Shown: positions 5,645-41,253 of the stretch, piece after piece | How the letters are laid out: every line of letters starts with the position of its first letter | Numbering within the stretch: position 1 is the first letter of the stretch | Source of the DNA: Candidatus Melainabacteria bacterium 17Bon1m | GTDB taxonomy: Bacteria; Cyanobacteriota; Vampirovibrionia; Obscuribacterales; Obscuribacteraceae | Assembly (NCBI GenBank): GCA_032128875.1 | Contig: JAVLKG010000002.1 | Span: forward strand, 1,066,202-1,130,201 | Direction: 5' to 3' | DNA length: 64,000 bases | Translations under genes and position numbers: made by a program | Notes under the pieces: generated by a model | The model's database searches: none | Seen by the model: the letters and a program-made list of their open reading frames with translations, nothing else | What the model was told of the DNA's origin: nothing

Positions 5645-6385
5645 ATGAAAAATCCGCGATACATTGTCATCGCGCGCCTGGGCGCTCTCATTGTCCTGGC
5701 GGCAAGCTTATCCACCGCCGTCATGGCGCAGGAGCCCGCCGCCAGCCGTCCTGCACCTTTCAAACTGAACGCTCAAGTCAACCAAAATCCGCAATTGAGC
5801 CGTGAGGGGGGCGATATGATCGTCTCTCATCTCTCTCCTGCAAATCAGCAACAGACAAGCGGACTAATTCCGCCCGGTGTGCCTGCTCAGGCAAAAGTCG
5901 CTCCTGGTCCCTTAGGGTTCAATCCAAATTCTCCACTTATCGGCAATGCTCGAGCTGTTGCCGAGTCCCAACAAGCTCCTCAGGCCTATCTAAGCGAGTA
6001 CGACGTTGACTGGTCCAGTTGGATTAGCCAAATGGCCGCTCGTTGGCATTACAACCTGAAGAGGTTGGAAGCACAATCGAATATTTGCTTTGTTACTGAA
6101 CGCCCTGCTTTGATTCAATTTACCTGTGCCTCGAATGGGCAGGTCGGCAATTTTTCTCTAAAACAGTCGTCCGGTATATATGCGTACGACCAGTTGCAGA
6201 TGTTAGCATTGAGTCAGGTTACCCCTTTGCCGCCATTTCCCAAGGGGACCAGATGCGCCACCATTACTCTTGTACAGGGTTGGGAATCGCATGCAAAACA
6301 ACCGGGAGAAAACGGTTTTGATCCAAGAGCGTTTGGACGGCGCTTTCCAATGGAGAAAGTCCAGCAATGGGTAAGGTCAAACTAA
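5645..6385 (+). CDS. Secreted protein with TonB C-terminal-like domain
   Basis: Signal peptide from ATG 5645 (MKNPRYIVIARLGALIVLAAS...A). C-terminal pattern IQF...NGQV...SSG..AYD..AL....PLPPFP is typical of TonB_C/TolA_C folds. Confidence 0.65.
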   Translation: MKNPRYIVIARLGALIVLAASLSTAVMAQEPAASRPAPFKLNAQVNQNPQLSREGGDMIVSHLSPANQQQTSGLIPPGVPAQAKVAPGPLGFNPNSPLIGNARAVAESQQAPQAYLSEYDVDWSSWISQMAARWHYNLKRLEAQSNICFVTERPALIQFTCASNGQVGNFSLKQSSGIYAYDQLQMLALSQVTPLPPFPKGTRCATITLVQGWESHAKQPGENGFDPRAFGRRFPMEKVQQWVRSN

Positions 6386-7728
6386 GCACCTCACTTACTA
6401 GTCTTCTTTTATCTGTAAATCTAGCTCTGGCAGGCGTTTTCTCAATCCCTGCCCTGGGACAAGGCACCGGTGGCAGTGTCAAACAGCAGCTATCGGCTTT
6501 GGAACAACGACTGTTTTTCAAAACCTACGAAGATGCCGACGACCAATCTCGCCTGCAGAGAATTGAAAAACAGGTATTCGGTCAACCTCTGGAAGGGGCT
6601 ACACAAGAGCGTCTTTCAAAGATAAGTTCTGCTCTGCCGCCAATGCGCGAACCGGAGCGCACCGCGCCTGGTGCACCACAACAGCAGCCGGCGCCACCAC
6701 AGGCGACACAACAAAGTCATAACGAATATGAAGCCGAAGACGCAATTGAAAAAGCTCGATTGCAGGTTCAAGCCGCCAAAGAGGCAGAACTTCAGCGGCT
6801 TCTAGCAGAAGGGGTGCAGCTCTGGCGCAATCGAAGAGCACATGAAGCGACCGAAAAATTCGAACAGGTCATTCGGCTTGATCCGAATAATGCCGAAGCA
6901 CATTTTAGTATGGGCATTATTTATGAGGCGTCCGGCAACTTTGCCGAGGCCCTTTCCAGTTATCAGCGCGCATCGGCATCAAGGCCGGACAATAAGGATT
7001 ATAAGAGCGCTATTGGCGATGTAGAAAAGAAAGCGCGCTCCAAAGAGAAAAACGATGGCTTGAGTGGCGAGCTGAAGATGATGGCAGAAGATGCCGCAGC
7101 AGCATTTAGGCGCGGTGAGTACATGTCGGCTCTCGACCTATATAAGCAGTTCGAAGCGCGCACACCGCCGCAGGCAAATATCAAATACAACATCGGGACG
7201 ATTTATCTGATGATGAAAAACTATCAGATGGCGCTCGAATACTACAAGCAAGCAAAAAAGCTCAAGCCTTCCGAACCTAAATATGTGCAAGCTGTGCAAC
7301 AGCTGGAAAGCAATATGAAGAAGGACACCGCTGAGCGCAAGCAGGCGCAAAAGGAATCTCAAGCCGCCTACGAAGAGCAGGAAAAGCGGCGTATGCAGGC
7401 GCAAAACCGTAACGTGCCTAATATCAATCCAGGGGCGAATAAATTTGCTCAGCTCGGCACCCAACCCTCTGCACAAAAGGGTCAGGAGTTTATGAACAGC
7501 GTCGGGCTAATCGGAAAGAGCGGGCGCGACGGTGTCGTGATAGTGGCAGTGGGAATTGCCTCGAGAGCGACGCGAGCCGGAATATTGCAAGGCGATGTAA
7601 TCAAAGCGGTTGATGGAATGGTCATCAAAAGCACCGGCGATCTCAACAGTGCCATCGAGTCCAAAGGTGGCCAGCAAATACAGTTGACCGTGCAACGTGG
7701 AAATCAGCTCGGTCTGGTGCGCTTCTAA
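6367..7728 (+). CDS. Secreted TPR-repeat protein with C-terminal PDZ domain
   Basis: Signal peptide; TPRs (LDPNNAEAHFSMGIIY, KYNIGTIY); PDZ-like A.RAGILQGDVIKAVDG...LTVQRG. Confidence 0.85.
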   Translation: MGKVKLSTSLTSLLLSVNLALAGVFSIPALGQGTGGSVKQQLSALEQRLFFKTYEDADDQSRLQRIEKQVFGQPLEGATQERLSKISSALPPMREPERTAPGAPQQQPAPPQATQQSHNEYEAEDAIEKARLQVQAAKEAELQRLLAEGVQLWRNRRAHEATEKFEQVIRLDPNNAEAHFSMGIIYEASGNFAEALSSYQRASASRPDNKDYKSAIGDVEKKARSKEKNDGLSGELKMMAEDAAAAFRRGEYMSALDLYKQFEARTPPQANIKYNIGTIYLMMKNYQMALEYYKQAKKLKPSEPKYVQAVQQLESNMKKDTAERKQAQKESQAAYEEQEKRRMQAQNRNVPNINPGANKFAQLGTQPSAQKGQEFMNSVGLIGKSGRDGVVIVAVGIASRATRAGILQGDVIKAVDGMVIKSTGDLNSAIESKGGQQIQLTVQRGNQLGLVRF

Positions 7729-27605: not shown

Positions 27606-29096
27606 TCAATAAGTGCAAGTTAGAGCCTGCATTTTTGCAGATGCTTGGAGGTATTCAACTTGAGCATCGACAAGTTTTATCTTGGCGTCAAACAATTGAC
27701 GTTCGCGCTGAGTTACAAGAAATACTGTACTGTCGCCGAAGTTGAAACGCTTTTTCTCACCCACATAAACAGCTTCCGACTTTTCTACTTGCTTGGTGAC
27801 TGCAAGAAATTTTTGATGCGACGCATTGAGAGTTGCCGCTGCGCTCATCACCTCTGCCACCAGGCGCTGTCTTTCTGAAATTTCTTCAGCGTTTAACGCA
27901 TCAATATTGAAGTGTGCGGACTTTATTCTTCCTCTCGCATTGCGCAAGTAAAGGGGAGAGCTGAAGGTGACCTGGGTGCGAAATACGTTGCCAACTCCTG
28001 AAATACCGCCGTCATATCCATAGGTAGCGAGTGCGTCGGCTTGAGGCAGGAGATCATTTCTGGCAAGCTTCAATTGCAGTTTGGCCTGCTCTTTTTCCAA
28101 TGCAATTCGCTTTAACTCTGGACGGCGGTCAACTGCCTTCCGCACGCTTTCATCAATCTCAGCAGCGGTGAACTCTTGAGGCGTAGGCCACAATTGAGGA
28201 ACATTCATTTCATCAAGGAATGGAGCCGGTCTTCCACTGCTATCAAATAGATAGACGGCTAATTCGTAAGTCGCTTTTTTGAACTCAAGCTCTGCAGCAA
28301 TTTTGTCGGCGGTCCGTCGCTGGAAATCTTCCTCTGCTTCCGTGACTTGAATTTTCGGCAAGTCCCCGGCGCTTGAACGCTTGTCTGCTGCCGAGACGAG
28401 AAATTCGGATAGTTGTACAAGACGTCGTGCGACCTGCATTTTTCTCTGAGCCCCGACCCAATTCCAGTACGCAATGTTGGCGCGCAACAGAATGTCGAGA
28501 CGATTGAGCGAAAAAGCTTGAGTTGCAACTGGCTCGCCAATTTTGGCCAATTTTTCGTTTGTCTCACGCTCATTGATTATAAAGCCGCGCAAAAGCGGAA
28601 CAGCAACACCACCTCCAAACTCGCCTATAAAGCCTGTTTCAATGTAAGGTGATTGCGATGTTCTTGGATTGAAACGATAGGTGCCAAGTAAACTTATCCC
28701 AGAGCGAGTGGGAATTTCGATTGCTGGCTGGTTATAGATTACTCTCTTGAGAGTGTCGAATTTCGATGTGTTTTGCATCCACGCATAACCGTTGAGCGTT
28801 CGGATTACGGGATCGAATACTCCTTGCACTTCCATGCGCCGCGCAGAAGCAACTCGTCGGCGCGAGTCCGCCGCGTCTATGCGCGGATAATTGTTGTCGA
28901 CAGCTGAAAGAAAAATCGATGGCGTGAGGATCGTACCGCCTTGTGTGATCGTTATTGAATAGTCCGCTTTCGTTCTGGCACGTGGGGCAAAACCAAGCGG
29001 TTCATAAATGCCGTCCGCGCATTGAGCAGGCATGACTGAGCAGGTCAGGGACCAGACGAGAAGCAAAGCAAGAACAACGCGAAGGGGTTTCATCAA
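27606..29096 (-). CDS. TolC-family outer membrane channel
   Basis: Signal peptide, G.FDP, VPLLRG, AYWNWV.A, RPEL, GDSTVFLV..RE. Confidence 0.9.
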   Translation of the reverse strand: MMKPLRVVLALLLVWSLTCSVMPAQCADGIYEPLGFAPRARTKADYSITITQGGTILTPSIFLSAVDNNYPRIDAADSRRRVASARRMEVQGVFDPVIRTLNGYAWMQNTSKFDTLKRVIYNQPAIEIPTRSGISLLGTYRFNPRTSQSPYIETGFIGEFGGGVAVPLLRGFIINERETNEKLAKIGEPVATQAFSLNRLDILLRANIAYWNWVGAQRKMQVARRLVQLSEFLVSAADKRSSAGDLPKIQVTEAEEDFQRRTADKIAAELEFKKATYELAVYLFDSSGRPAPFLDEMNVPQLWPTPQEFTAAEIDESVRKAVDRRPELKRIALEKEQAKLQLKLARNDLLPQADALATYGYDGGISGVGNVFRTQVTFSSPLYLRNARGRIKSAHFNIDALNAEEISERQRLVAEVMSAAATLNASHQKFLAVTKQVEKSEAVYVGEKKRFNFGDSTVFLVTQRERQLFDAKIKLVDAQVEYLQASAKMQALTCTY

Positions 29097-30517
29097 GGGC
29101 TTTTTCGTTTGGCGCTATCCTTCACTGTTGAATCAGTCTGAAGACTTGGAATATTAGGGTTGTTCGGATCTTGAGGCTGAATGGTCGGCTGCCAACCATT
29201 CAACTGTCGCCATAGCTCATACCAGAGCGGCACGTCGCTAAGGAGAATCCAACCGGTGACTTGAGCGCCTGGGCGCAGGAAGGTAGTTGATGGCCATGGA
29301 TCAGCTTGTTTGTTTGCAATAGCGGTCTTATCAGGCTCGACAATTACGCGGTAGCGATTTTTTCCGTCGTCGGTTGCATCGATAACGCTCACTACGCCAG
29401 CAAATGTTCCGATAGCAATGCGCGGCCAGCCGATAAACTGAAGTGCCGGCCAACCGGCGATCTGCAGACGCACAGGGCGACCGACCGAAACTAGTGGCGC
29501 GTCCCAATCTCTGATATTGATCTCTGCGGCGCGGTCTTGAGTATGTGGTGCAATCACTGCCAAAACGTCGCCGGCATTTACCATAGCTCCTGCGCCCACG
29601 CGCATGAGCCGGACAATTCTGCCGGAGCAAGGGGCGTCGACTGTCCTTTGATCGACGCGTTTTTCGAAGTTGTCGATGTCGATCTGAAGTTTGTAGATGT
29701 CGGCATCAGTACTTGCCACCAATTGATTTGCGTCGGCGCGTGCTGCCTTTATAGCGTTGATATTGCCGCCAGTGTCTGCGTCTGTGCGCTTGTTCTCCAG
29801 CAGCGAAATGCTCGCATCTTCTTTGGCTACATCAAGAGCTGCCAATGCTCTTTCCAGTTCTGTCTTAGAGCGAATGGTGTCCAGCTCGGCAAGCTCTTTG
29901 TCACGTTTTGAACGAAGCCCGTCGTTGAACAAAGACTCAACTCGATCTGATTGCCATTGAGCTGTTTTTAAACTTTGCTTGGCCGCTTCCACAGCTTGCT
30001 CGGCTTGATAGACACGATCGTTAGCCTGCTTTACTCTTTCAATTGTGGCTGGAACAGCAGCTTTACGAACTCCGGCTGAGGCGTTTACTTGATCGCTCAA
30101 AGCTTCGGCACGCGCCTTAAGTGCATCTCGCTTGGCCATAAGCGCAGTCTTCTGTGCGAGCAATGTCTTGAGTTGTGTGTTGTCGAGAAATCGCGAATCG
30201 AGCTCAGCTAAAGAAACAATCTTTTGACCTTTTTCGACGTCTTGACCGTCACGGACAAACCAATTGACGATGCGCCCTGGAATTTGCGCTTCAATAGTCT
30301 GAGGACGATCCATCGGTGAAAAGACTATTATTCTGCCTGTTCCAGTCACCGATTGACGCCAGGGAAGAAATAATGCTGCGACGATCGACGCGACCATGAT
30401 GAGAAGAACGCCGCTAATCATCACCGTAAACAAAACTGGCGTTCGCACCATTTGCAAGGAGCGAAAATGCGGCAATTTCCTTTCTCTGGATGTTTCTTTG
30501 TCTTCAACGGTATTCAT
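29093..30517 (-). CDS. HlyD-family membrane fusion protein
   Basis: N-terminal TM, LPWRQSVTGTG, biotinyl-like halves, long coiled coil, GWPALQF.GWP...GTF.G.V, LWYELWRQLNG. Confidence 0.9.
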   Translation of the reverse strand: MNTVEDKETSRERKLPHFRSLQMVRTPVLFTVMISGVLLIMVASIVAALFLPWRQSVTGTGRIIVFSPMDRPQTIEAQIPGRIVNWFVRDGQDVEKGQKIVSLAELDSRFLDNTQLKTLLAQKTALMAKRDALKARAEALSDQVNASAGVRKAAVPATIERVKQANDRVYQAEQAVEAAKQSLKTAQWQSDRVESLFNDGLRSKRDKELAELDTIRSKTELERALAALDVAKEDASISLLENKRTDADTGGNINAIKAARADANQLVASTDADIYKLQIDIDNFEKRVDQRTVDAPCSGRIVRLMRVGAGAMVNAGDVLAVIAPHTQDRAAEINIRDWDAPLVSVGRPVRLQIAGWPALQFIGWPRIAIGTFAGVVSVIDATDDGKNRYRVIVEPDKTAIANKQADPWPSTTFLRPGAQVTGWILLSDVPLWYELWRQLNGWQPTIQPQDPNNPNIPSLQTDSTVKDSAKRKSP

Positions 30518-30520
30518 TGA

Positions 30521-32314
30521 CTACTTGCGAATAAGCTCCACGAGTTTTGGAAACAGTTGTTCGAGCTGGCTATCTTTTTTGGAAAGCAGCTCTTTTAGAT
30601 TGCCTGACTCAACGACCTGTCCATTGCGCAGAAAGACCATTCTGTTCGAATGAAAAATGGTATCGGCGTCCTGAGAGATATCGATAATGGTCCAGGGCAT
30701 GTCGGCGGCAAACAGGCGATCGAGAATTTGCATTTTGCTTCGCTCTTCAATACCGGTAAATGCTTCATCAAGTATCAGCAAGCGCGGCTTTTGGGCAATG
30801 GCTCTTGCTATCAAAAGTTTTTGCGCTTGCCCGCGAGATAAATTTCGTCCGCCGCTCAACAGCTCAGTCTTCAACCCATCGCGCATACTGACGAGTTCTG
30901 AGTCGAAATCAACTATCTTGAGAGCCCAGAGCATTTCCTCATGGGATATTTCACTGCGTCCAAACGTGACGTTAGTTTCAATTGTGCCTTCAAAAATCTC
31001 ATTTGAGTCTGTGACCAGTGAAACAATGCTGCGCAGACTCTCGTAATTGATATCGCGCACATCCATGCCGTTAATTTGCACCAGCCCAGAACTTGGCTCA
31101 ATCAGCCCGCTAAGAACAAGCGCAAGAGTGGATTTGCCTGACGCATTTGGTCCCATCAGGCTGATTCTTTCACCCGGCCGCAGTTGAAGGTTCAAGCCAT
31201 TGATGACATTTGTTTTTTGCCCGTAATCGACATGAAGACCTTGAATATTGAGTGAGGCACCACCTTGAGTGGGAGCGCAATTGCTTCCGTCGATTCTTTC
31301 TAACGGCAGGTCTTCTACGTAGCCAATTTTGCCGAGCGCTGAGAGTAACTCATATAGTGTTTGCAGGTGTCTGATTAAACGCTCGAGTGCCGGTAGCATC
31401 TGAGTAACCAGCAATTGAGCGGCGACAAGTTGCCCCAAGGCGAGTTGTCTTTCGATGACGAGCCAACCGCCAATACCGAGAACACCGGCAGCAGCGAAGG
31501 CTTGAAACAGCGCTAGCCCAGATGCCTGGCGGAAAAGCACACTGAAGTGTTTGCGTCGTGCATCCGTGTACTCGAAGACCAAATTGTCGGTTCGCTCGAG
31601 TATGTGCATTGGAAACTTGTTGAGCTTGATCGAGGTTTCACAACGCCCCAGTTCTTCTAGCCATTCGGCTACCAGGTATCTTTTCGATGTCTCATTGCTT
31701 CTGGTTTTATATCCATCAAATCCGAATAGAAAGACCTCACAGAGCACAAAGCCAATTACAATCATTACAAAGGCAAGCAGGTAAGGGCTATACAGCGCCA
31801 TGAGCGTTAGCCCGATAAGAATCTGCAAGGTGGCGGCGGGGACGTCTAGCAGCAGATTGGCAAAATTTCCCTGAATCGTAATTACATCGAAGAAGCGATT
31901 TACTAAATCTGGGAGATATTCTTTGGACAATTGCGAGTGCTGAATGCGAGGCACTCGATAAGCGATACGCAACGCGATGCGGTTGAAAACGCGCTGCCTG
32001 ACCAGTTCTACAAGCCATATAGTCAAGAGTCGAAGGAGGGCGGCGAAGAGTAGTCCGCCTAAAACCAAACCGGCAATTACGGTAATCGGTTGCAGGAAAA
32101 ATCCCGCCGCAATTGTGTTTACAACCATTTGAGTCGACAGAGGCACTGCCAAACTCATGACACCGCCTAGCGAACTGTAGATGAGAATTAAGAAGAGGTC
32201 TTTCTTGTCCTCGACGATCATTCGCCAGAGGCGATAGTAAGGAGATGTCGGTTTGTCCTTCTGGTTTGCATCACCGGCTGGGTAAAGGACTTTTGTCAGA
32301 GAATCGACAGACAT
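30521..32314 (-). CDS. Type I secretion-like ABC exporter (TMD+NBD) with H-loop His replaced by Gln
   Basis: TM domain; Walker A GPNASGKST, signature LSRGQ, Walker B LILDEA, switch region DISQD. Confidence 0.9.
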   Translation of the reverse strand: MSVDSLTKVLYPAGDANQKDKPTSPYYRLWRMIVEDKKDLFLILIYSSLGGVMSLAVPLSTQMVVNTIAAGFFLQPITVIAGLVLGGLLFAALLRLLTIWLVELVRQRVFNRIALRIAYRVPRIQHSQLSKEYLPDLVNRFFDVITIQGNFANLLLDVPAATLQILIGLTLMALYSPYLLAFVMIVIGFVLCEVFLFGFDGYKTRSNETSKRYLVAEWLEELGRCETSIKLNKFPMHILERTDNLVFEYTDARRKHFSVLFRQASGLALFQAFAAAGVLGIGGWLVIERQLALGQLVAAQLLVTQMLPALERLIRHLQTLYELLSALGKIGYVEDLPLERIDGSNCAPTQGGASLNIQGLHVDYGQKTNVINGLNLQLRPGERISLMGPNASGKSTLALVLSGLIEPSSGLVQINGMDVRDINYESLRSIVSLVTDSNEIFEGTIETNVTFGRSEISHEEMLWALKIVDFDSELVSMRDGLKTELLSGGRNLSRGQAQKLLIARAIAQKPRLLILDEAFTGIEERSKMQILDRLFAADMPWTIIDISQDADTIFHSNRMVFLRNGQVVESGNLKELLSKKDSQLEQLFPKLVELIRK

Positions 32315-32526
32315 TAAGTTGGATTTGCACGGCGTAGAGAACGAGACAAATTAAGTGTGCCTGAAACGAATCGCAAATCCAAGCGACAGTATAAAGAAAG
32401 GCTCTAATTCTATCTAAGCAAGCGAAATCGATATATCTTTAGTGCATACGAAAATGGCGGTTCGGTGCCAACTCAGTCGTGGGGCGAAAGAGCTGGCACC
32501 GAACTTTGGCGTTGGAAAAACTTGTT

Positions 32527-34332
32527 TTAGCTAGGTTGGAAGCTGGTTTCCTTTGATGTGTCGTGGGGCAACGAGACTGTGAATGTGGTGCCGTCAACGT
32601 CTGATTTGCAAGAAATATTTCCTTTATGCGCATCGACAATCTGTCTGCACATGTAAAGTCCGAGCCCGACTTTTGGTAGATAGCCGGTTCCGTCTTCTTC
32701 TCCTGTCAATGGACGTTCGAATAGTTTGTTTCTCTGATCGAGTTCGATAAAGGAACCACTGTTATTCACTTCGAACATGACGTGGTCACCCCTGCGAAAT
32801 GCTCTCAGCGAGATCGTGCCGCCTGCGGGCATATATTTCAGGGCATTCTCAAGCAGATTTTGGATAACTACCCGTAGCGATTCGCTATTGCCGACGATAC
32901 CGACATCTCCGCTTTCGCTCAGGTTCAATTCAATATTTACTTTCTTAGCGTCAGCATCTTGTTGGAATTTTGCAGCACAGTCTCTAATTAAGCTGGTTAC
33001 GCTTGCGTATTCCGATGCTTGAATATCCGAATCTCTGTCGTATTTATACACAGAGATGATGTGCTGAATCATGCGCAGCAATTCATTATTGCCTTCGACA
33101 ATCTTCGTGAGAATCCGCTCTTGTTCGGTCTCTAATTTGCCTAGCTTTCCTTCCGTCATTAGATTCAGAATTCGGTTTGTTCCAACAATTGGGTTTTTCA
33201 AATCGTTGGCAAGCATCGCCATGAAATCATCTCTTTGGTTCATAAGTAGAATTCGGCGATTGTTCTCTTCGGCATTTTTTCGGTCTGTTACGTCCTCCAG
33301 TGTTCCGATTAATTGTCGCTTGCCGTCAGCCTTTCCGGTAAGTGGAACAGCCTTAGCCTTAATCCATTTTGTGACGCCTGAAAGAGTATGAATGCGAAAC
33401 TCTTGCGACCACTCATTTCCTTTTTCTACCGCTTCTTTCCATGAAGCAAGTGTTCTTTCGCGGTCACTCTCTACAACAAGAGTCCACCATTCCTTTCCCT
33501 TTTCAATGGGGGAGGCTGTGAGTTGAAACCACGGCAGACCAATTACTTCCCAGCCATCATCTGCATTGGATTCGAAAATGACAGTGGGCACCGAGCTGCA
33601 TAAATTGCGGAATTTCTCTTCCGATCTTTTTACCTGTTCTGTCCTTTCAATGACTTGTTCTTCGATTATCTGATTGGTCAATTCCATCTGAGCTTGTTTT
33701 TCAGCGATGCGCAGTTTCTCCCGCATATCGAGAACACATTTTCGTATAAGGAATACATCCGCAAAAAGCACCCAGCTCGAATGTTCTACCCAACGCCAGG
33801 GCTCTGGGTACGTGACGCCGTAGACGGAAAACGGCAGATAAACTCCGCGCACGATGTGATCTAGCGCCGTCATGACTGTTGCCGTTACCAAAACTCTCCA
33901 GTCCGCATAGAAAGCGAGGAAAGTGAGTGATCCAAAAATAAGGAAGTGCGTTTCTAAACGACCACCACATAGGTGAATAATTAAGGCAGTCATTAATATC
34001 TGCGCTACTGCTATGGTTTGTCTGGTTAATGCTTTGCCCGAGTAGAACCATGCCAAACCAACCGGCAGAATGATAATCGCCATACCCAACCAAATTGAAA
34101 GCATGACGTGAATGTGAGTGTTTGATGAAACGCCTTCCCAAGAAGTTGGCGACACCAAAAATGCTGTCAGCACCCCGCCCAGCCATTCTATGATTAGCAG
34201 AACCGCGAACATATGGTCGCAGTCGGCATAATTTCTTCGCACGAGGGCTTCGAAAATCGATTTTGTCTTCGAGCTGATCAACTCGGCGACTTCACTGTGC
34301 AATTTTAATTGTTCGATCCGATCGACGCTCAC
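32527..34332 (-). CDS. Membrane sensor histidine kinase-like protein (His-rich TM sensor, PAS, HisKA, HATPase) lacking the phospho-His
   Basis: IHLCGGRLETHF...DH..RG...WRWVEH sensor; PAS/PAC (EFRI...KWI...GTLEDVTDRK); H-box LANDLKNP; N-box NLLENALKY; GLGLYMC..IV.AH.G. Start taken as GTG 34332 (GTGA overlap with the upstream stop). Confidence 0.9.
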   Translation of the reverse strand: MSVDRIEQLKLHSEVAELISSKTKSIFEALVRRNYADCDHMFAVLLIIEWLGGVLTAFLVSPTSWEGVSSNTHIHVMLSIWLGMAIIILPVGLAWFYSGKALTRQTIAVAQILMTALIIHLCGGRLETHFLIFGSLTFLAFYADWRVLVTATVMTALDHIVRGVYLPFSVYGVTYPEPWRWVEHSSWVLFADVFLIRKCVLDMREKLRIAEKQAQMELTNQIIEEQVIERTEQVKRSEEKFRNLCSSVPTVIFESNADDGWEVIGLPWFQLTASPIEKGKEWWTLVVESDRERTLASWKEAVEKGNEWSQEFRIHTLSGVTKWIKAKAVPLTGKADGKRQLIGTLEDVTDRKNAEENNRRILLMNQRDDFMAMLANDLKNPIVGTNRILNLMTEGKLGKLETEQERILTKIVEGNNELLRMIQHIISVYKYDRDSDIQASEYASVTSLIRDCAAKFQQDADAKKVNIELNLSESGDVGIVGNSESLRVVIQNLLENALKYMPAGGTISLRAFRRGDHVMFEVNNSGSFIELDQRNKLFERPLTGEEDGTGYLPKVGLGLYMCRQIVDAHKGNISCKSDVDGTTFTVSLPHDTSKETSFQPS

Positions 34333-34988
34333 AGAACCGCCCTCAAAGCACAGCCAAAAACTGGTGTGGTAGTGTATTTGACTTTCCTTGCCAAAATGCA
34401 CTGTTTGGCTAAATCAAAATAATGGTTGTCTCCTCTATGACCTCGAGATCCTGTGATTCCGCCAGTAAATTGCAAAACGCCTCTGCCGTCGTAAATCATT
34501 ACGTGCCCGGAAGTAGTGACACCAAAAGTTTCCGCCTGCGAGCCACTGGTGTCGTATTCAATGGTCACGTTGCGAATTCTTTTGACACGTTGAATTATTG
34601 GAGCTGATGACCATTCAGCTTCTTTTTCTGGTGGCATGTAGAAAACGACTGTGCCAACCGAATCCTTTTCGCCTTCGCGCATCAGTTCGTGAAATTCATC
34701 TACGCTCGCCTCAGAGCAAGGGCAGCCTGGGTGCAAGAACATAACAATGTTTTGTCGTCCATGCGCAAGTTGTACATCGCTGCACTGCGGAAAAACTCTT
34801 TTGGAGTTTGCCAGCGGGCTTGGTGTAAGCTCATACTCGTACAGCACTAAGTGCCCGACAAAGAGCAAAGATATCCAGATCAGATAGGCGGCAAGAAAAA
34901 GACAAACGAACGCAGTTTGACGTATGCCGAACGTCTTCTTGTCAGTAGATTGAGATTCAGATTTTGAGCTTTCCATCTTGATCTGCAA
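34329..34988 (-). CDS. Membrane-anchored thioredoxin-like protein ('RedB'-type) with HPxCPC motif
   Basis: One TM helix, FLHPGCPCSEAS, FGVTTSGH..IYD..G.L.F.GGIT.SRGH.GDN, PVFGC. Confidence 0.75.
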   Translation of the reverse strand: MQIKMESSKSESQSTDKKTFGIRQTAFVCLFLAAYLIWISLLFVGHLVLYEYELTPSPLANSKRVFPQCSDVQLAHGRQNIVMFLHPGCPCSEASVDEFHELMREGEKDSVGTVVFYMPPEKEAEWSSAPIIQRVKRIRNVTIEYDTSGSQAETFGVTTSGHVMIYDGRGVLQFTGGITGSRGHRGDNHYFDLAKQCILARKVKYTTTPVFGCALRAVL

Positions 34989-34999
34989 CCTGCTTTAAA

Positions 35000-36637
35000 T
35001 CAAACGCCCAGCCCTTCCAAATCCTTTTTCAATTCGTGCATCGATTGATGCCGCTGATATTTGTCTTTGCGTAGTGTTTTTGTGATGATGGCTTGCAAGC
35101 GATTGTCGACAGTGACTCCTGCTGTGGCTGCAGCTAACGCAATCGGCGGGCATTCTTCGTTGACTTGCTTATACATGGCTTCCACGATGTTTTCGGTCAT
35201 GAAAGGTGGATGCCCTACGAGTGTTTCGTACATCAGCGTGCCCATGGAATAAACGTCGGAGTTAGCCTCCAGCTGCAGTCCCATGCACTGCTCCGGGCTC
35301 ATGTAAGTCGGCGATCCGAATACCTGCCCGGGCACTGTCAGTCCCGCACCTTCAGTTTCGGCTGCAACCAATTTAGCTGTGCCGAAGTCGACCAGTTTGA
35401 CGTTCAAATCAGGTTTTCCATAATTAACTACAAGTACATTGCTTGGCTTCAAATCTCTGTGAATGATGCCATTATCGTGTGCGTGTCCAAGTCCGCTGCA
35501 CACTTGTTTGAATACCTCGACTGATTGTTTCCAAGGCAAGTGCTTATGTTCGGCAATGAGCTCATCGAGGCTGCTTCCGCCCAGGTAGTCCATGATCATG
35601 AACGCCTGACCTTCGGGTGATAGACCGAAATCAATTACGTTGACGATGTTTCCGTGCGTCAGCGAACTGGCTGCCGCAGCCTCTTGTCGGAAGCGCTTCA
35701 ATAAAGAAATATCGGATATTAGTTCAAGGTGCATGATTTTTATAGCGACAAGCTTGTGCATGTAGCGATGTCGCGCTTTGTATACAGCACCACTGGTGCC
35801 GCATCCAAGCAGTGCGAGAATTTCGTAGCGGTCAGCGAAGACGCTTCCGATCATCGCATCTTCTTTCAGCTCGTTACCATCATATGGGCAACGAGTGAAT
35901 TCTACGCCAAGGCGTACTCGGCAATTTGGACAGATTTTGGACATCTGAAAGTCTTGCGAGTTTTTCGCATTGCGAGAGATTTTCGTCGCCGGAACGCTAT
36001 TGCCGGACCAAGAAACTTTCTGAATCAGCTTTTTCAAATAGGACTGTACTTCGCTGTCCTTCAGACCAACTTGTGTGCCGATTTCGTCCGACGAAGCACC
36101 TTCCAGAATCAAGCCGAGCACTTTCAATTCGCTTTCCGTCAGCGCTAATCTTTCGCTGGTAATTTGTGGATCAGCCAATTTCGCCGAGTGAAGAACGCGG
36201 CGCGCGATGTCATCGTCGAGCCAAGCAGCACCTGATGCAACTGAATTGATTGCCGTGTTGAGTTTGGCCGTTGAGATATCTTTCAAGCAATAGCCATCCG
36301 CACCGGCAGCCAGCGCAGCAAAGATTGATTTATCTTCTTCATGGCTAGTAAGGATCATGACGCGTGTATTCATTTGAGCTTTGATACGGCGAGTTGCCTC
36401 GATGCCGTCGAATCCAGGCAAGCCGATGTCCATGAGGATGACCTGTGGCTTCAACTCTAAGGCTTTCTGCACAGCGCTAGGACCATCGGCTGCGACGCCG
36501 ACGATTTGAATATTGCGCATATATTGAAGGGTCAGGTTGAGACCAAGGCGCAGCACCTCTTGGTCTTCCACCACCAACACACTAATAAGGTCGCTGGCAC
36601 GTGTATTCTCGGCTTCAAAACGTCTCATGGTATTCAT
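35000..36637 (-). CDS. NarL-type response regulator (REC + LuxR-like HTH) fused to a zinc ribbon and Hanks Ser/Thr kinase
   Basis: VLVVED, LMDIGLPG.DG, LTS, GYCLK; LTESELKVLGLILEG.S..EI; CPNC...CPYD; GCGTSGAVYKA, AIK, HRDLKPSN, DFG, GSPTYMSPEQ. Confidence 0.92.
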   Translation of the reverse strand: MNTMRRFEAENTRASDLISVLVVEDQEVLRLGLNLTLQYMRNIQIVGVAADGPSAVQKALELKPQVILMDIGLPGFDGIEATRRIKAQMNTRVMILTSHEEDKSIFAALAAGADGYCLKDISTAKLNTAINSVASGAAWLDDDIARRVLHSAKLADPQITSERLALTESELKVLGLILEGASSDEIGTQVGLKDSEVQSYLKKLIQKVSWSGNSVPATKISRNAKNSQDFQMSKICPNCRVRLGVEFTRCPYDGNELKEDAMIGSVFADRYEILALLGCGTSGAVYKARHRYMHKLVAIKIMHLELISDISLLKRFRQEAAAASSLTHGNIVNVIDFGLSPEGQAFMIMDYLGGSSLDELIAEHKHLPWKQSVEVFKQVCSGLGHAHDNGIIHRDLKPSNVLVVNYGKPDLNVKLVDFGTAKLVAAETEGAGLTVPGQVFGSPTYMSPEQCMGLQLEANSDVYSMGTLMYETLVGHPPFMTENIVEAMYKQVNEECPPIALAAATAGVTVDNRLQAIITKTLRKDKYQRHQSMHELKKDLEGLGV

Positions 36638-36812
36638 TGCTCACCCCAAAGCTGACAGGCGGTATACCGCCAGCCACTAGACGAACCACCTAGGTCCGTA
36701 CCGCCCTTACTCTTCCACTATCCTGTATGCTCGTCCTACGCGCATCACTCGAAAGTGCGAAAAGGGAGTGATTTCCGGTCACCCAAAGGTTCTGGTTTTC
36801 GGTGATTTAGCT

Positions 36813-37508
36813 TTAGCCTGCCGCTTCGACGTCGTATGCGTCAGAGTCACCATGTGATTCTTCGTCCTCGCCTTCACCATCAAAGGCACGATCGAGTTGG
36901 CGATAAACCCGACCCAGAGCGACCGAGCAGACGATGGAAGCGGGCAAAACTCCGACCACAAAACATATCAGCCCGCCGAAGACGACCATGCAGAGAGTGA
37001 AATATAATGCCAAGAGTTGCAACAGGTGACCTTTCGTGATGGCAAAACTGCGTTTTAGTGCCTCAATCGGACCCATCTCCTGGTCAATAATCAAATAGGA
37101 GTAAAGTCCCAGTGCCAGTCCTGCATATATACCTGGAATGGCGAGGAAGACTAGTCCTGTCCCGACCACGACCACGAAGATAAGGCTGGCAATGGTAAAA
37201 GGTATTGTGTACTTGAATCCGGCAAGGACGTCGCCGATACCGGCAGGCTCGTCGTCCATGCACAAAAGGGTGACTCTTGTCGACAGCATTAGTGTTATGA
37301 GTTGCACTACAACACTGGCAACTTTCAGCCACCACGGCGACTCGTGATTTTGAGCAAAAATGGCAAAAATTGTGGAAGCGGTATTGATCATCCCATGAGG
37401 AATCCACAAAATTACCGTCCAGAGCACCAACGCCAACCAGCGTCTGGTCAGAACATCCCAGCCGAATTCCAATGATTTTGCGATGTGGAAAGGTGGGTTT
37501 TCGGACAT
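36813..37508 (-). CDS. Hypothetical integral membrane protein (DUF975/YciC-like)
   Basis: Multiple TM helices; IPGIY, GPIEALKRSF.ITKGH, G.ICFVVG. Confidence 0.65.
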   Translation of the reverse strand: MSENPPFHIAKSLEFGWDVLTRRWLALVLWTVILWIPHGMINTASTIFAIFAQNHESPWWLKVASVVVQLITLMLSTRVTLLCMDDEPAGIGDVLAGFKYTIPFTIASLIFVVVVGTGLVFLAIPGIYAGLALGLYSYLIIDQEMGPIEALKRSFAITKGHLLQLLALYFTLCMVVFGGLICFVVGVLPASIVCSVALGRVYRQLDRAFDGEGEDEESHGDSDAYDVEAAG

Positions 37509-37701
37509 CTGCAAGCTCCTAGTGAACGCTTCTCACTCCAAAAGGTTATACCCGCCAAGCTATATAGGCTTGAGATATATGTCCAATAATCAGAGAATAT
37601 AAAAGGTAGAGCCCTCTTACTATCAATACTTTTGCGTTGTTTTGTCCACTGAAATGGCGTATCTTTAAGGCTGTCGGCGAGCCTTTCGGCTGCCCTGGAA
37701 A

Positions 37702-40700
37702 GTGCCTAGAGTGGCAAAATTGACTCCTAACAATCCGACCACTCCCTCGCTGCCATTGGCGGCAGCAACGGCTATCGACAATCAATTCATTACTGACCCA
37801 GCCGAAATACCGCCAGCTCTGCGTGAACTGTCGTTTCGTTATCCGCTTCGTCGTTATCAGCAAGAAATTCTCGAGCTGGTCAAAATCAAGATGGAACGTG
37901 GCGAAAGGGAGCTGCATATCGTCGCACCGCCCGGTGCTGGAAAAACTATCATCGGACTGCAGTTGATAAGCACCTTGAAGGTGCCTGCGGTTATCCTCGC
38001 ACCCAATACTACGATTCAGTCGCAGTGGGGTCATAAGCTGGACCTTTTCATTCCGAATCATTTGACCGGTATGGTCAGCATGTCCGACATTTTAGGTACT
38101 CATGAAGACAAACCACTGAAGCCCGTCACAGTGTTGACGTATCAAGTGTTGTCCACTCCGGGAAGGGAGCAGGAATATCTCGAAAAGTTGGCGCATCAAA
38201 ATTGGTCGCAAGAGATCGCTAAGGGCCGTTCGATCTCCTCGGGCGAGGCTGAGCTGCGAATTTTAGACTTGTTGCAGAACAACCAGGCAGCATACAACAA
38301 AGAGATGTCCCGGCACGTAAGCAGGTTGCGGAAAAAACTTGCTGATGTGATGGACCTCAAAGACGTTTTGCACCCGAATGCTCTTGAACTGTTGCAGGCA
38401 TTGAGAAGACAAAAAACGCGCCTGATTCTTTTTGACGAGTGCCACCACCTCACCGATTACTGGGCGGCCATAATGAGCCTGCTTGTGAAACATTTGGATG
38501 ATCCGATTATTGTCGGTCTCACCGGTACTCCGCCCGAAGGCAAGTCCAAGCTGCAAGAAACCCGCTATCTTTCGCTTGTTGGCGAGATCGATTATCAGGT
38601 TCCTACTCCTGCTTTGGTGAAAGAAGGCGGTCTCGCGCCCTTTCAGGATCTGGTGATGTTCACGCAGCCAACTGAAAAAGAGTTTCTCTTCCTTGAATCT
38701 CAACATGTCGATTTCCACCGTTTAATCGCTGACCTTGCAGGCATCGAACAGCCTCCACCTCATCAGGAAAATCCATTTGGAAACGGCGATGATGGAGACG
38801 ATGAATACGCGGAGAATGAAGATGATTTGGCTGGGGAATTTTCAGCCCCCGCTCTCACTGCGGGACCGCGAGATTTAGAGAAACAGCCTGAACCGAAACT
38901 GATCGATCCGGCGGCGATTCCAATAGTTGACGATCAATTTGAAGAAGATACCGCATTTGGTGTAATGTCCGGCGGCGATTTAGATTTTAGTCCTGGTCCC
39001 GATCTTGTCGAAATCGAAAGTTCTACTTTAGTTGAGGTTCCAACACCTTCGGAACTCCCTTCATCTTCGGAACTCCCCGCAGCTGCTGAGCTCCCTGCAA
39101 TTGCTGAACTCCCTGCAATTGCTGAACTCTCTGCAAATGCTGAACTTATTGCACCAGCGGGAGTACAAGAACCAACCGAACCGGTGACACCACCTCTGAC
39201 AGAGTGGGTTTTGAGTCGTTTGAATGAAACTGCCTATGATAAAGATACTGGTGCCTTTAGAAGTTTTGTTCAGCTGCGTCCTCAGTTTGCCTCTGCACTC
39301 TATAGATACTTGACTAAAACCGGTCGTCCTCTTCCCGGCAATATTCGGGCGACGGAGGAATTGCTCCAGTCTCCGACAATTGATGACTGGATGATGATCC
39401 TCGAAGATTTTGCTTCGCACAGATTGAAACTCAGTCAGAATAAGAAGGACCACGAACTCTACGATCAAGTACGCAGTTCGATGCGAAAGCTCGGTTATTC
39501 AATTACAGAACAAGGGCTGCGAAAAACCGCCTCGCCAATTGACAGGGTCTTAGCATTCAGCAAGAGCAAGACGCACGCTGTCTGCCGGATTTTGGACACT
39601 GAATACGCCAGCCTGCAAGACCGTTTGCGCGCAGTAGTGGTGACTGATTTTGAACGGATGTCTGCAACTTCGGTGAAATCGCTGAAGGGTGTTCTTGACG
39701 CGGAAGCGGGCGGAGCCGTCGCGACACTGCGGACCTTGCTTGCTGCACCAATTTCGGCCATGCTCAATCCTTGCCTTGTGACTGGGTCGCTCGTGCTTGT
39801 TGACCGGCGCATCAAAGATCAATTTGTCAAAGTTTTTGATGAGTTACTCAAGCGAGACGGCCTTGATGTTCAACTGATAGCTGATGATGATTCCAATGAG
39901 CCTTGGGTGGAAATCAGTGCGAACACTTCACAGTGGCAATCGCGTTTGTACGTTGCAGTCGCCACTGAGATATTCGAGCTTGGTATAACTAAGTGTCTAA
40001 TTGGCACACGTGGTTTGTTTGGCGAAGGTTGGGACAGTCAGTCGCTTAACACTCTGATCGACCTGACTACGACAACTTCGCCGGTTTCGGTTAAACAATT
40101 GCGTGGACGCTCGATTCGTATTCATACAAAAGATCCGTTAGGTGGGCGTAAAGTTGCGAATAACTGGGATGTTATTTGTATTGCTCCCTCTTTAGAGAAA
40201 GGTTTGAACGATTACCATCGATTTGTTCGCAAGCACGATGGATATTATGGAATCGCCGATGATGGGCAGATCGAATGTGGCGTCGGGCACGTCCATCCTT
40301 CTTTTTCAGAGCTCACTCCTGCTGAAGTTTTTGCTTCCGCGGTCGACCTGAACAACGAGATGTTGAAGCGCGCGTTAGTGAGAGATCAAATTTATGATCT
40401 CTGGAAAGTTGGTATGCCGTATCACAATCGCACCCTCGGTTGCGTTGAGTTGACGTCGCTGAGAAAGCTCAATCTTACGCCGGCATATCTGAAGCGCAAT
40501 GCTGGATACAAAGATCATGCCAAGGAAATGCGAGCAGCTTTGAGCGGCATTTATGTCGAACATGCGGCACTCGGAGCGCTGACCGCTGCTATCGTCGGTG
40601 GTGGCGCTGCTTTCTGGGGTGCCCCTGTCTTGCTTGCGGCTTTGCCATTTGCCGCGGCATTAGTACTTGCGTTCAAGCGACACAAACGCCTTTTTACAAA

Positions 40701-41253
40701 CTTCCAAGAGCAAGTTTGCGAGCCAGGCACAGTTGAAGCGTCCTTGGGCGATATGACATTCGCATTGCTGTCTGCACTTAAGCGAGTGCGCCAATTGCCT
40801 AAATACATTGATAAAGACAGCATCAAGATTTCGCAGCGTTCTGATGGCAGCTATCGGGTATTCCTTGATGATGTTGAAGCCAATCACTCCAAAATATTCA
40901 CCAGTGCTTTCAAAGAATTGATGTCTCCAGTTGTCGATCAACCGTACCTAATTCCCAAGTATGAGTTCGCTCTTCCATATGTCGATGGAGATAGACAGTC
41001 CAAAGACTCGCAAAAGCGCAAAAGACTGTTCTTCAAAAGCTATCTGAGAGGTTCGGCTCAACCGAGAATCGCAACATACCACGTTGTTCCAAAGTTGCTT
41101 GCACGTTCGCAAAAAGGGCGAGAAGCTTTTCAGGACGCCTGGAATAAATATGTCAGCCCGGGATACATCGTAGAGACAGAAACAAAACCGGAAGTTTTGC
41201 AGAAATACTTTGGAATGGGACCTAGCTTGGCCGAGCGTCTGTTATGGGAATGA
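37702..41253 (+). CDS. SF2 DEAD/DEAH-box helicase-like ATPase with acidic insert and C-terminal transmembrane hairpin
   Basis: Q-motif LRRYQQE, APPGAGKTIIG, DECHHL, GLTGTP, LFGEGWD, QLRGRSIR; hydrophobic hairpin AALGALTAAIVGGGAAFWGAPVLLAALPFAAALVLA. Confidence 0.88.
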   Translation: MPRVAKLTPNNPTTPSLPLAAATAIDNQFITDPAEIPPALRELSFRYPLRRYQQEILELVKIKMERGERELHIVAPPGAGKTIIGLQLISTLKVPAVILAPNTTIQSQWGHKLDLFIPNHLTGMVSMSDILGTHEDKPLKPVTVLTYQVLSTPGREQEYLEKLAHQNWSQEIAKGRSISSGEAELRILDLLQNNQAAYNKEMSRHVSRLRKKLADVMDLKDVLHPNALELLQALRRQKTRLILFDECHHLTDYWAAIMSLLVKHLDDPIIVGLTGTPPEGKSKLQETRYLSLVGEIDYQVPTPALVKEGGLAPFQDLVMFTQPTEKEFLFLESQHVDFHRLIADLAGIEQPPPHQENPFGNGDDGDDEYAENEDDLAGEFSAPALTAGPRDLEKQPEPKLIDPAAIPIVDDQFEEDTAFGVMSGGDLDFSPGPDLVEIESSTLVEVPTPSELPSSSELPAAAELPAIAELPAIAELSANAELIAPAGVQEPTEPVTPPLTEWVLSRLNETAYDKDTGAFRSFVQLRPQFASALYRYLTKTGRPLPGNIRATEELLQSPTIDDWMMILEDFASHRLKLSQNKKDHELYDQVRSSMRKLGYSITEQGLRKTASPIDRVLAFSKSKTHAVCRILDTEYASLQDRLRAVVVTDFERMSATSVKSLKGVLDAEAGGAVATLRTLLAAPISAMLNPCLVTGSLVLVDRRIKDQFVKVFDELLKRDGLDVQLIADDDSNEPWVEISANTSQWQSRLYVAVATEIFELGITKCLIGTRGLFGEGWDSQSLNTLIDLTTTTSPVSVKQLRGRSIRIHTKDPLGGRKVANNWDVICIAPSLEKGLNDYHRFVRKHDGYYGIADDGQIECGVGHVHPSFSELTPAEVFASAVDLNNEMLKRALVRDQIYDLWKVGMPYHNRTLGCVELTSLRKLNLTPAYLKRNAGYKDHAKEMRAALSGIYVEHAALGALTAAIVGGGAAFWGAPVLLAALPFAAALVLAFKRHKRLFTNFQEQVCEPGTVEASLGDMTFALLSALKRVRQLPKYIDKDSIKISQRSDGSYRVFLDDVEANHSKIFTSAFKELMSPVVDQPYLIPKYEFALPYVDGDRQSKDSQKRKRLFFKSYLRGSAQPRIATYHVVPKLLARSQKGREAFQDAWNKYVSPGYIVETETKPEVLQKYFGMGPSLAERLLWE
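39049..39156 (+). repeat. Six degenerate 18-bp tandem repeats within the helicase insert (SELPSS SELPAA AELPAI AELPAI AELSAN AELIAP)
   Basis: For example GCTGAGCTCCCTGCAATT GCTGAACTCCCTGCAATT GCTGAACTCTCTGCAAAT. Confidence 0.85.

Follow-up and report, generated by a model that had tools for sequence, protein, structure and literature searches.

An operon of Obscuribacteraceae that joins a receiver-Hanks kinase fusion, a RedB-like thioredoxin-fold protein and a sensor kinase with Asn in place of the phospho-His

Three co-oriented genes and their products

The stretch of DNA analysed here (the window) comprises 64,000 nucleotides (nt) of Candidatus Melainabacteria bacterium 17Bon1m, a member of Obscuribacteraceae, and corresponds to C2:1066202-1130201 of the 7.55-Mb assembly (genome G000 below). 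In this window we studied an operon of three open reading frames (ORFs), named g1, g2 and g3, all of which lie on the minus strand. They encode a response regulator fused to a Hanks-type Ser/Thr kinase, a RedB-like thioredoxin-fold protein and a membrane sensor that has the fold of a histidine kinase and Asn at the phospho-His position. An earlier note, made from the sequence letters, had described three tightly packed, co-oriented genes with an 11-nt gap and a GTGA overlap, and the ORFs and the junction sequence bear this out. The stop codon of g1 (TGA) is followed by 11 nt and then by TTG 34988, the first possible start of g2. An in-frame ATG at 34976 is the start in orthologs of 215 amino acids (aa), and with this start the gap between g1 and g2 would be 23 nt. 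The GTGA is the overlap of the g2 stop with the g3 start. The features are given below, with the receiver (REC), helix-turn-helix (HTH), six-helix transmembrane (6TM), dimerization and histidine phosphotransfer (DHp) and catalytic and ATP-binding (CA) domains under their short names thereafter.

36637..35000, minus strand: g1, 545 aa, fusion of response regulator and Hanks-type Ser/Thr kinase (in order REC, GerE-like HTH, Cys-rich linker and kinase)
36248..36580, minus strand: g1 receiver domain, aa 20-130 (PF00072 Response_reg, 83.5 bits)
36428-36430, minus strand: g1 phospho-acceptor Asp70 (codon checked)
36014..36145, minus strand: g1 GerE/LuxR-type HTH, aa 165-208 (PF00196, 24.1 bits against a cut-off of 23.5, borderline)
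35879..35932, minus strand: g1 Cys-rich linker CPNC..CPYD, putative zinc-binding knuckle, aa 236-253 (from the translation)
35030..35827, minus strand: g1 Hanks-type protein kinase domain, aa 271-536 (PF00069 Pkinase, 173.9 bits)
34988..34329, minus strand: g2, thioredoxin-fold protein of RedB-like type with a membrane anchor; 219 aa if started at TTG 34988, 215 aa if started at ATG 34976
34716-34724, minus strand: g2 CPC codons, C89-P-C91 (from the codon position)
34332..32527, minus strand: g3, 601 aa from GTG, His-less sensor (6TM, PAS, DHp, CA), pseudo-histidine kinase
33688..34218, minus strand: g3 six-helix membrane domain, aa 39-215, with conserved periplasm-facing His/Glu/Asp (AlphaFold model, predicted local distance difference test (pLDDT) 86.2; not in Pfam)
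33301..33501, minus strand: g3 PAS domain, aa 278-344 (PF08447 PAS_3, 38.2 bits)
33028..33255, minus strand: g3 DHp domain, aa 360-435, with Asn376 for the phospho-His and D377-x-x-N380 kept
33205-33207, minus strand: g3 Asn376, codon AAC (codon checked; homolog alignment)
32560..32889, minus strand: g3 HATPase_c (CA) domain, aa 482-591 (PF02518, 73.9 bits)
32761-32763, minus strand: g3 Asn524, replacement of the G1-box Asp (box alignment)

The decisive feature of the operon is the H box of g3, which reads F-M-A-M-L-A-N-D-L-K-N-P-I-V-G. Asn376 aligns with the phospho-His of all His-bearing homologs. Among 93 aligned proteins, Asn is found at this position in all 28 database orthologs of g3 (54-100% identity, two of them fragments), and His is found in the remaining 65, two of which are GGDEF/EAL proteins in which the column is meaningless. 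The fetched loci gave the same result: Asn in 10/10 loci of g3 orthologs and His in 10/10 kinases of the paralog family. The earlier note had pointed out the Asn and had allowed that orthologs might keep His and that the Asn codon might be an error. An error of sequencing or assembly is ruled out by the conservation among the orthologs and by an independent metagenome contig, which covers 32200-36433 (g3, g2, most of g1 and the REC-kinase junction) without indels. Because Asn occupies the position in every ortholog, g3 should be unable to autophosphorylate on His; it lacks the phospho-acceptor of an autophosphorylating HisKA protein. In addition, the intact frames in all orthologs and the highly conserved DHp and CA domains rule out a decaying pseudogene. 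Thus g3 has a kinase fold without phospho-His under purifying selection, which is what defines a pseudo-histidine kinase.

We compared the conservation of the regions of g3 among 26 orthologs. The mean pairwise identity was highest for DHp helix 1 (0.88), followed by the 6TM domain (0.81), CA (0.77), PAS (0.68) and the linker between DHp and CA (0.45). Residues A375 to G384, including D377, N380 and P381, are invariant, and the Asn at H+4 (N380), the T/N residue of the motif of HisKA phosphatases, was found in 26/26 orthologs. The CA domain keeps its N box, and its GLGL is invariant. However, the G1 box reads N-S-G-S-F against D-x-G-x-G (Asp to Asn524, second Gly to Phe), and the G2 box reads K-V-G-L-G-L against G-x-G-L-G-L (first Gly to Lys).

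A quick, midpoint-rooted FastTree phylogeny of 101 membrane domains grouped all sequences without the His as a single clade (14 tips, of which 3 duplicate other loci; support 0.89). The sister of this clade is a pair from Obscuribacterales (L041 and L047) with the same architecture and an H box reading LSHDLKNPIIGTNRIL, within the stretch L-S-H-D-L-K-N-P-I-I-G-T-N-R-I-L. Thus one substitution, now fixed, changed His to Asn in a helix that is frozen in all other respects. The two sister proteins (L041:5914-7860 and L047:5881-7770) are organised as 6TM-PAS-DHp-CA, keep the His and have no g2-like gene upstream. They share the atypical G1 box of g3, with Asn for Asp and Tyr or Phe for the second Gly. 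We had taken the G1 Asp-to-Asn change as a possible proof of a dead ATP site, and we dropped this idea since the sisters that keep His carry the same change.

The earlier note had also called g3 a His-rich transmembrane (TM) sensor with PAS and HisKA-HATPase domains. The Pfam scan recovered these domains, and the 6TM domain does carry conserved His residues. The HisKA match is weak (20.9 bits, under the gathering cut-off of 26.9). His-bearing sisters of g3 also fall under this cut-off (22.8 and 25.3 bits), and the low score is probably in part a trait of the subfamily.

The conservation of g1 was judged from an alignment of 118 rows, namely the query plus 117 database relatives no shorter than 500 aa, which include 30 orthologs. 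The receiver residues E24, D25, D70, T97 and K119 (the acidic pair, the phospho-Asp, the Thr and the Lys that a receiver needs) were found in 30/30 orthologs and nearly all of the 118 rows. The same holds for the kinase residues K300, E319, H393-R-D395, K397, N400, D417-F-G and E449; the Gly loop, the VAIK Lys, the helix C Glu, HRD..N, DFG and the APE-like Glu of Hanks-type kinases are present in all 30 orthologs. The intact NarL-type receiver and the catalytically complete Hanks kinase of the earlier note are both confirmed by these residues and by the Pfam scores. The LuxR-like helix region that it saw between them has the borderline GerE score listed above, and many members of the g1 family have no precomputed GerE match. 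The NCBIfam NarL model aligns with g1 aa 16-209 (1.2e-33), with a score of 116 that is far under its own cut-off of 250.

The zinc ribbon of the earlier note comes down to three conserved Cys. C236, C239 and C250 of the linker (CPNC-x10-CPYD) are conserved in 30/30 orthologs and in 102-103/118 family rows, and zinc binding by this linker is plausible from the sequence; no family model backs a zinc ribbon there. In the relatives, many kinase matches begin at query aa 219-233 and so include a Cys-rich CPxC..CPxDG linker. This linker seems to be a common N-terminal element of kinases in this group.

Receiver-protein-kinase architectures are listed in domain censuses. The REC-HTH-kinase fusion of g1 is a member of an established family, of which the same genome holds paralogs. 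Its orthologs share 60-98% identity with g1, the fusion family has more than 100 database clusters, and almost all of the best 120 database matches are 510-600 aa long and carry both PF00072 and PF00069. G000 itself has 123 ORFs that resemble the kinase domain of g1, among them four fusions of REC with a kinase (C2:1101201, which is the focal operon, C2:79951, C4:351094 and C2:773821). An assembly chimera, which the earlier note had considered for the fusion, is ruled out by the clusters of the same architecture, by the four fusions in one genome and by the independent contig that spans the junction. The closest paralog of g1 (C2:79951, 64% identity) adjoins a 1143-aa hybrid kinase with HisKA (77.6 bits), two REC and a histidine phosphotransfer (HPt) domain. 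This neighbourhood indicates that ordinary phosphorelays feed kinase-fused regulators like g1.

The earlier note had read g2 as a membrane-anchored thioredoxin-like protein with HPGCPC, and both AlphaFold and Foldseek agree with it. No Pfam or NCBIfam family reaches E 0.01 for g2; DUF6436 scores 13.3 bits, below its gathering cut-off of 27.3 (E 0.068). The AlphaFold model (20 relatives, pLDDT 84.5) consists of one long N-terminal helix, the single TM helix of the protein, and a thioredoxin-like domain. Foldseek matched the model to thioredoxin-like, TlpA/DsbE and AhpC folds (best 3u5r, E 2.4e-8), with 190 PDB matches at E<=0.001, all thioredoxin-like among the matches listed. The active site, HPGCPC at aa 86-91, is C-P-C rather than CxxC. 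Residues H86, C89, D146, S160, G161, G176, G177 and G212 are invariant, and P87, P90, C91, T159, R182, G183 and C213 reach at least 90%. In addition to C-P-C there is a C-terminal Gly-Cys (G212-C213). The ortholog in G015 reads C-P-A, with Ala for the second Cys. The g2 family is large (4275 representative clusters at E<=0.001). NCBI gives the label 'RedB protein' to an 89% ortholog of g2 and to one planctomycete member, and the nearest atlas clusters are named RedB, some of them carrying DUF6436. The link of g2 to the Red system is thus one of labels.

Conservation of the operon and spread of the sensor pair

The earlier note had made its proposal depend on synteny in relatives. We found g1, g2 and g3 complete and adjacent in seven loci of relatives (L013-L019), which belong to two genera, six of them to the same genus; the ORF starts in the relatives are mechanical calls. 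In the operon of the other genus (G015), the identity is 73% for g1, 35% for g2 and 54% for g3. Three more loci, truncated at contig ends, are consistent with the operon.

In G000 there is also a canonical counterpart (C1:329000-339000), which consists of two single receivers, a g2-like gene, a 6TM kinase and a NarL-type regulator. Its kinase (755 aa, 6TM-GAF-PAS-HisKA-HATPase) keeps the His and has canonical G1 and G2 boxes, and its regulator (235 aa) is 41% identical to g1 aa 18-219. Thus the two sets share a g2-like gene, a 6TM sensor kinase and a NarL-type regulator. However, the regulator of the counterpart is not fused to a kinase, and its two single-receiver genes lie upstream as extra genes. 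Because of this counterpart, the focal operon looks like a derivative of an ordinary system of RedB-like protein, 6TM kinase and NarL regulator, in which the regulator comes from the kinase-fused family and the kinase has no His. Besides g3, the genome holds two 6TM paralogs (C1:331756 and C2:619041), with a DHp of the SHELRTPLT type.

Meanwhile, three orphan kinases of about 365 aa (C3:568464-569552, C12:156326-157426 and C9:79049-80155) have a DHp helix 1 nearly identical to that of g3, for example F-M-A-T-L-T-H-D-L-K-N-P-I-I-G-S-N-R-I-L. They keep the His and canonical G1 and G2 boxes, and no receiver gene adjoins any of the three. Orphan regulators, for instance those fused to a kinase, might receive their phosphoryl groups from these three kinases, which should be taken as leads.

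The membrane domain of g3 is widespread. In a pattern scan with one genome per species, at least 570 stretches encode it. They come from Planctomycetota, Verrucomicrobiota, Acidobacteriota, metagenome-assembled genomes labelled Deltaproteobacteria, Chloroflexota, Gemmatimonadota, Omnitrophota, Armatimonadota and others. The counts of modules refer to the best 80 loci (L037-L116) of these stretches. In 72/80 loci the 6TM match is directly preceded by a g2-like gene on the same strand, counted as such when its end falls within -100 to +400 nt of where the match begins. The 6TM domain is attached to a His-kinase core in 59 loci, to a hybrid kinase in 11, to GGDEF/EAL in 4 and to Pkinase in 1, while 5 are cut or unassigned. 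A REC-kinase neighbour was found in only 3/80 loci, which are the Obscuribacterales orthologs. The pair of g2 and the 6TM sensor is thus a widespread uncurated module and is not special to the focal operon. It appears that a RedB-like gene and a 6TM domain form a general two-protein sensor.

Two loci in which this sensor family stands with a Ser/Thr kinase were seen. At L103:2747-4663 (plus strand), a 638-aa protein has the 6TM domain fused straight to Pkinase (aa 344-608, 175 bits), and the locus has no g2-like gene. In another genus, L025 (G022:C20:11000-21500) has a g2-like gene, then a His-bearing 6TM hybrid kinase, then a 783-aa Ser/Thr kinase without receiver (ORFs 5795-6499, 3288-5852 and 905-3256, all minus strand). 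L025 thus represents a second kind of association between a 6TM sensor and a Hanks kinase.

Within the 6TM domain, H129, H159 and H184 are invariant, and H73, H75 and H120 reach at least 90%; the alignment shows no conserved Cys in this domain. A Pfam search of the membrane domain at E<=5 gave noise only, and Foldseek of the 6TM model against the PDB gave no match (best E 0.21). MASE/PilS-like leads from the atlas (0.85-0.93) were weak, with low counts of shared features, and were not accepted. In VIA-align, the best matches of the 6TM model are the six-helix anchors of class III adenylyl cyclases and ImcA, namely 8sl3_A (Z 11.5, root-mean-square deviation 3.8, 204 aligned), 6r3q_A (Z 10.6) and 8wcn_B (Z 10.1). 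These anchors resemble the 6TM domain in having a 6TM bundle that runs into a long cytoplasmic signalling helix. However, the identity is 7-10%, and a Z below about 13 in helical bundles may reflect a common arrangement only.

The complex model of g3 aa 1-245 with g2 supports binding of the two proteins. Its score was 0.69 (runs 0.70, 0.68 and 0.69), and the best of three controls gave 0.00. The mark for such scores was reached by 116/157 solved complexes and 2/215 mismatched pairs, figures that apply approximately here, as we supplied our own alignments. The runs share at least 95% of contacts, and the partner pLDDT is at least 73. In the model, the TM helix of g2 (31-54) contacts helices 2 and 3 of g3 (74-120), and H86, 88-90, 117-122, S160 and 213-217 of g2 contact the loops 63-68 and 165-169 of g3. 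These contact loops, together with H73, H75, H120, E127, H129, D158, H159, E183 and H184, lie at the predicted outer face of the six helices, where the topology was assigned by inspection of the AlphaFold helices. We infer from this arrangement that g2 and g3 may share a periplasmic metal or redox site.

The neighbours of the operon are as follows. Downstream of g3, after a gap of 212 nt, the minus strand of 27606-32314 encodes an ATP-binding cassette (ABC) exporter (597 aa), an HlyD-type adaptor (474 aa) and a TolC-like outer-membrane protein (496 aa), which look like a type I secretion or efflux operon. Upstream of g1, 36813-37514 (minus strand) encodes a 233-aa membrane protein with a weak, sub-threshold match to DUF975. 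Divergent from this gene, 37702-41253 (plus strand) encodes a ResIII/DEAD helicase-like protein of 1183 aa that contains a long insert, acidic and rich in repeats. In the runs recorded as RNA-Seq (X2 and X3), 32200-37000 of the window lies inside contigs of 83 kb and 17 kb with flat depth.

Likeness to known systems

In Caulobacter crescentus, DivL carries Tyr at the phospho-His position and works with the single-domain regulator DivK to control CckA. According to the accessible parts of the reports, DivL resembles g3 in that it has a histidine-kinase fold with the phospho-His replaced and engages a receiver protein through its DHp-CA (PMC4211667, PMC5361649). However, g3 carries Asn, keeps the phosphatase residue and has a 6TM sensor with a thioredoxin-like partner. 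In addition, the presumed target of g3 is a regulator fused to a Hanks kinase.

The Red system of Myxococcus xanthus (redA-G), as the accessible text of its report describes it, resembles the focal operon in that the small gene redB lies in the operon of the membrane histidine kinase RedC (PMC2755868). A RedB-like gene beside a membrane kinase was likewise found in the focal operon, as in the 72/80 loci. In the same text, RedE is kinase-like, does not autophosphorylate and dephosphorylates a receiver, and redB mutants have no phenotype (PMC2755868). Unlike g3, RedC autophosphorylates on His253 and RedE still has its His (PMC2755868). Furthermore, the Red system as described there has no Ser/Thr kinase. 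Genes of the RedD, RedE and RedF types (dual receiver, soluble kinase-like protein and single receiver) were not seen in the focal operon, which was not compared with M. xanthus sequences.

The motif H-E/D-x-x-T/N of HisKA proteins provides a third comparison, for which the accessible part of PMC3510030 is the source. There, T or N at H+4 is required for phosphatase activity and the acidic residue beside the His is needed for kinase activity only. The phospho-His is dispensable for the phosphatase activity of EnvZ and CrdS, and the H371A variant of CrdS and the His variants of EnvZ, which are kinase-negative and phosphatase-positive, resemble g3 in this motif (PMC3510030). The corresponding stretch is N-D-L-K-N-P in g3 and L-A-H-E-I-K-N-P-L in CrdS and NtrB (PMC3510030). 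However, the CrdS and EnvZ variants described there are laboratory mutants, whereas the variant in g3 occurs naturally, is fixed and comes with additional changes in the ATP lid.

For g2, the likeness is to TlpA, DsbE/CcmG, ResA and Etrx in the fold (Foldseek E 2.4e-8 to 1e-4), the N-terminal anchor and an active-site Cys that starts helix 1. Unlike these proteins, g2 has CxC for CxxC, the C-terminal Gly-Cys and an R-G-H motif. Its gene always neighbours a sensor gene rather than genes of cytochrome maturation.

Proposed mechanism and its meaning

We propose that the operon arose when a widespread two-protein membrane sensor was rewired in this lineage. The periplasmic g2, with its one TM helix, its CPC and its C-terminal Cys, would dock on the His-rich six-helix domain of g3, and the two would form a joint input device. 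The input would most plausibly be a periplasmic redox or metal cue. The signal would be relayed through the PAS and DHp-CA of g3, with no autophosphorylation on His. The target of g3 would then be the g1 receiver, which is intact, and g3 would either dephosphorylate it under control of the signal or bind it in the manner of DivL. The phosphorylation state of this receiver would gate the fused Hanks kinase, and perhaps the weak HTH, and the output would be Ser/Thr phosphorylation of other proteins. The phosphoryl donor would lie elsewhere; the three orphan kinases of the same DHp subfamily and acetyl phosphate are the candidates.

In the core of this proposal, g3 would gate the fused kinase by setting the state of the g1 receiver, and would do so as a signal-controlled phosphatase or as a pseudo-kinase that docks on the receiver; we consider the chance of this combined statement to be slightly below even. 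We infer that the g1 receiver is the target of g3 because the receiver is intact, because the receiver-docking helix is the best-conserved part of g3 and because the genes are translationally coupled or nearly so. Of the roles that the earlier note had offered for g3, namely phosphatase, scaffold or Ser/Thr substrate, an action as phosphatase or docking protein is favoured, since the H+4 Asn is kept and DHp helix 1 is extremely conserved.

Several points weigh against this proposal. The adjacency of g1 and g3 by itself says little about contact between their products. For the phosphodonor of the g1 receiver there are only candidates. PleC is a further difficulty, as the loss of its His abolishes phosphatase activity too in the accessible text of PMC3510030; because of this, Asn376 could abolish both activities of g3. 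Nucleotide binding by the CA of g3 is uncertain given the non-canonical G1 and G2 boxes, and some transmitter phosphatases, such as RedE, need ADP in the available part of PMC2755868. On the input side, a thiol-disulfide relay from g2 to g3 is unlikely, since the 6TM domain has no conserved Cys, and the C-P-A of the G015 ortholog argues against an obligatory CPC disulfide in g2. Finally, the runs X2 and X3, which are labelled as RNA, look like DNA in the library; they attest the presence of the operon and give no evidence of expression.

The main alternative is that g3 is not catalytic at all and works by docking or reverse signalling as DivL does. Its DHp-CA would read the phosphorylation state of the g1 receiver or hold the receiver, and g3 would serve as a scaffold that places the fused kinase at the membrane sensor, or as an allosteric switch of the kinase. 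The replaced His, which recalls DivL as the accessible reports describe it, fits this alternative, and so do the conservation peak at DHp helix 1 and the non-canonical G1 and G2 boxes. The loss of phosphatase activity in PleC without His (accessible text of PMC3510030) also fits. However, the H+4 Asn and the neighbouring Pro, which are tied to phosphatase catalysis, are invariant; docking alone does not need them, yet is compatible with them. We regard this alternative as unlikely, with a real chance of being correct.

A different direction of signalling, in which g3 is a Ser/Thr substrate or an inhibitor of the g1 Hanks kinase, is improbable. The membrane signal would in this case take the form of O-phosphorylation, and an unrelated phosphorelay would provide the input to the receiver. 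Here the tight packing of the three genes would be expected, and the sensor family is repeatedly tied to Hanks kinases because of the Pkinase fusion in L103 and the neighbourhood in G022, where a 783-aa Ser/Thr kinase follows a His-bearing 6TM hybrid kinase. However, we identified no conserved phospho-site in g3, and the top conservation of its receiver-docking helix is left unexplained.

It is more improbable still that g3 is a dominant modulator of His-bearing paralogous kinases through DHp heterodimers, as RetS is of GacS, with an indirect linkage to g1. Its partners would be either the short orphan kinases, whose DHp belongs to the same subfamily, or the 6TM paralogs. Several His-bearing kinases in the genome do have a nearly identical DHp helix 1, and the paralogs at C1:331756 and C2:619041 are available. 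However, these two 6TM paralogs have a different DHp of the SHELRTPLT type, and the operon is conserved with g1 and not with those kinases.

Plant phytochromes, ethylene receptors and PDK-type GHKL kinases are examples of Ser/Thr or trans-phosphorylating proteins of this fold, and that g3 is such an ATP-using kinase of another kind is the least probable explanation, hardly to be expected: its CA is under constraint (0.77 identity) with invariant N box and GLGL, and its atypical G1 also occurs in the His-keeping, presumably active sisters, but the G1 Asp is Asn, the second G1 Gly is Phe, the first G2 Gly is Lys, and no acceptor has been proposed.

Phosphatase control or docking by g3 at the g1 receiver thus remains our preferred reading. 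Pseudo-histidine kinases (DivL, PsmA and a ChrS variant), kinase-like phosphatases (RedE), membrane-anchored thioredoxins and receiver-enzyme fusions are known already from the accessible parts of the literature. The earlier note had proposed an undescribed system. This stands for the combination; it does not stand for the parts, as the REC-kinase fusion, the pseudo-histidine kinase and the pair of g2 and 6TM are each known or widespread. The novelty therefore lies in the combination, not in single parts. The REC-GerE-Hanks kinase, the focal operon and the RedB-like and 6TM pair as a sensor are undescribed in the accessible text of the literature that we searched (including PMC12189002, PMC9953108 and PMC11032199), a search that left response-regulator censuses and the 2005 red paper outside.

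The results suggest that the operon bridges the two main bacterial phosphorylation systems in an undescribed way. That two-component systems and Hanks kinases engage in cross-talk is usually deduced from scattered phosphorylation events. Here the link is written in gene structure, as the receiver-kinase fusion, and in operon structure, as the fixed His-less sensor that adjoins it.

The part most likely to be of wide interest is the general sensory module. A bolder reading is that the RedB-like protein and the His-rich 6TM domain form an unrecognised periplasmic redox or metal sensor that spans phyla and can be plugged into His kinases, c-di-GMP enzymes and Hanks kinases, and that in Obscuribacteraceae it has evolved to a phosphatase-only or docking pseudo-kinase that solely sets the receiver state of a regulator-fused Ser/Thr kinase. 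Taken as a whole this is speculative, and we think it rather doubtful that every part of it will hold. If it is true, the operon would be a hard-wired converter from His-Asp to Ser/Thr output, with kinase and phosphatase functions split between proteins.

If the proposed mechanism holds, g3 would be a natural kinase-dead, signal-regulated transmitter that acts on a regulator with kinase output, and the operon would offer a tractable system for the gating of a Hanks kinase by receiver phosphorylation. It would also give a first functional handle on the common RedB-like and 6TM module, which has thousands of clusters and a membrane domain without a Pfam model. Furthermore, it bears on the many Ser/Thr kinases of Obscuribacterales, of which the 123 kinase-like ORFs in this genome are an example.

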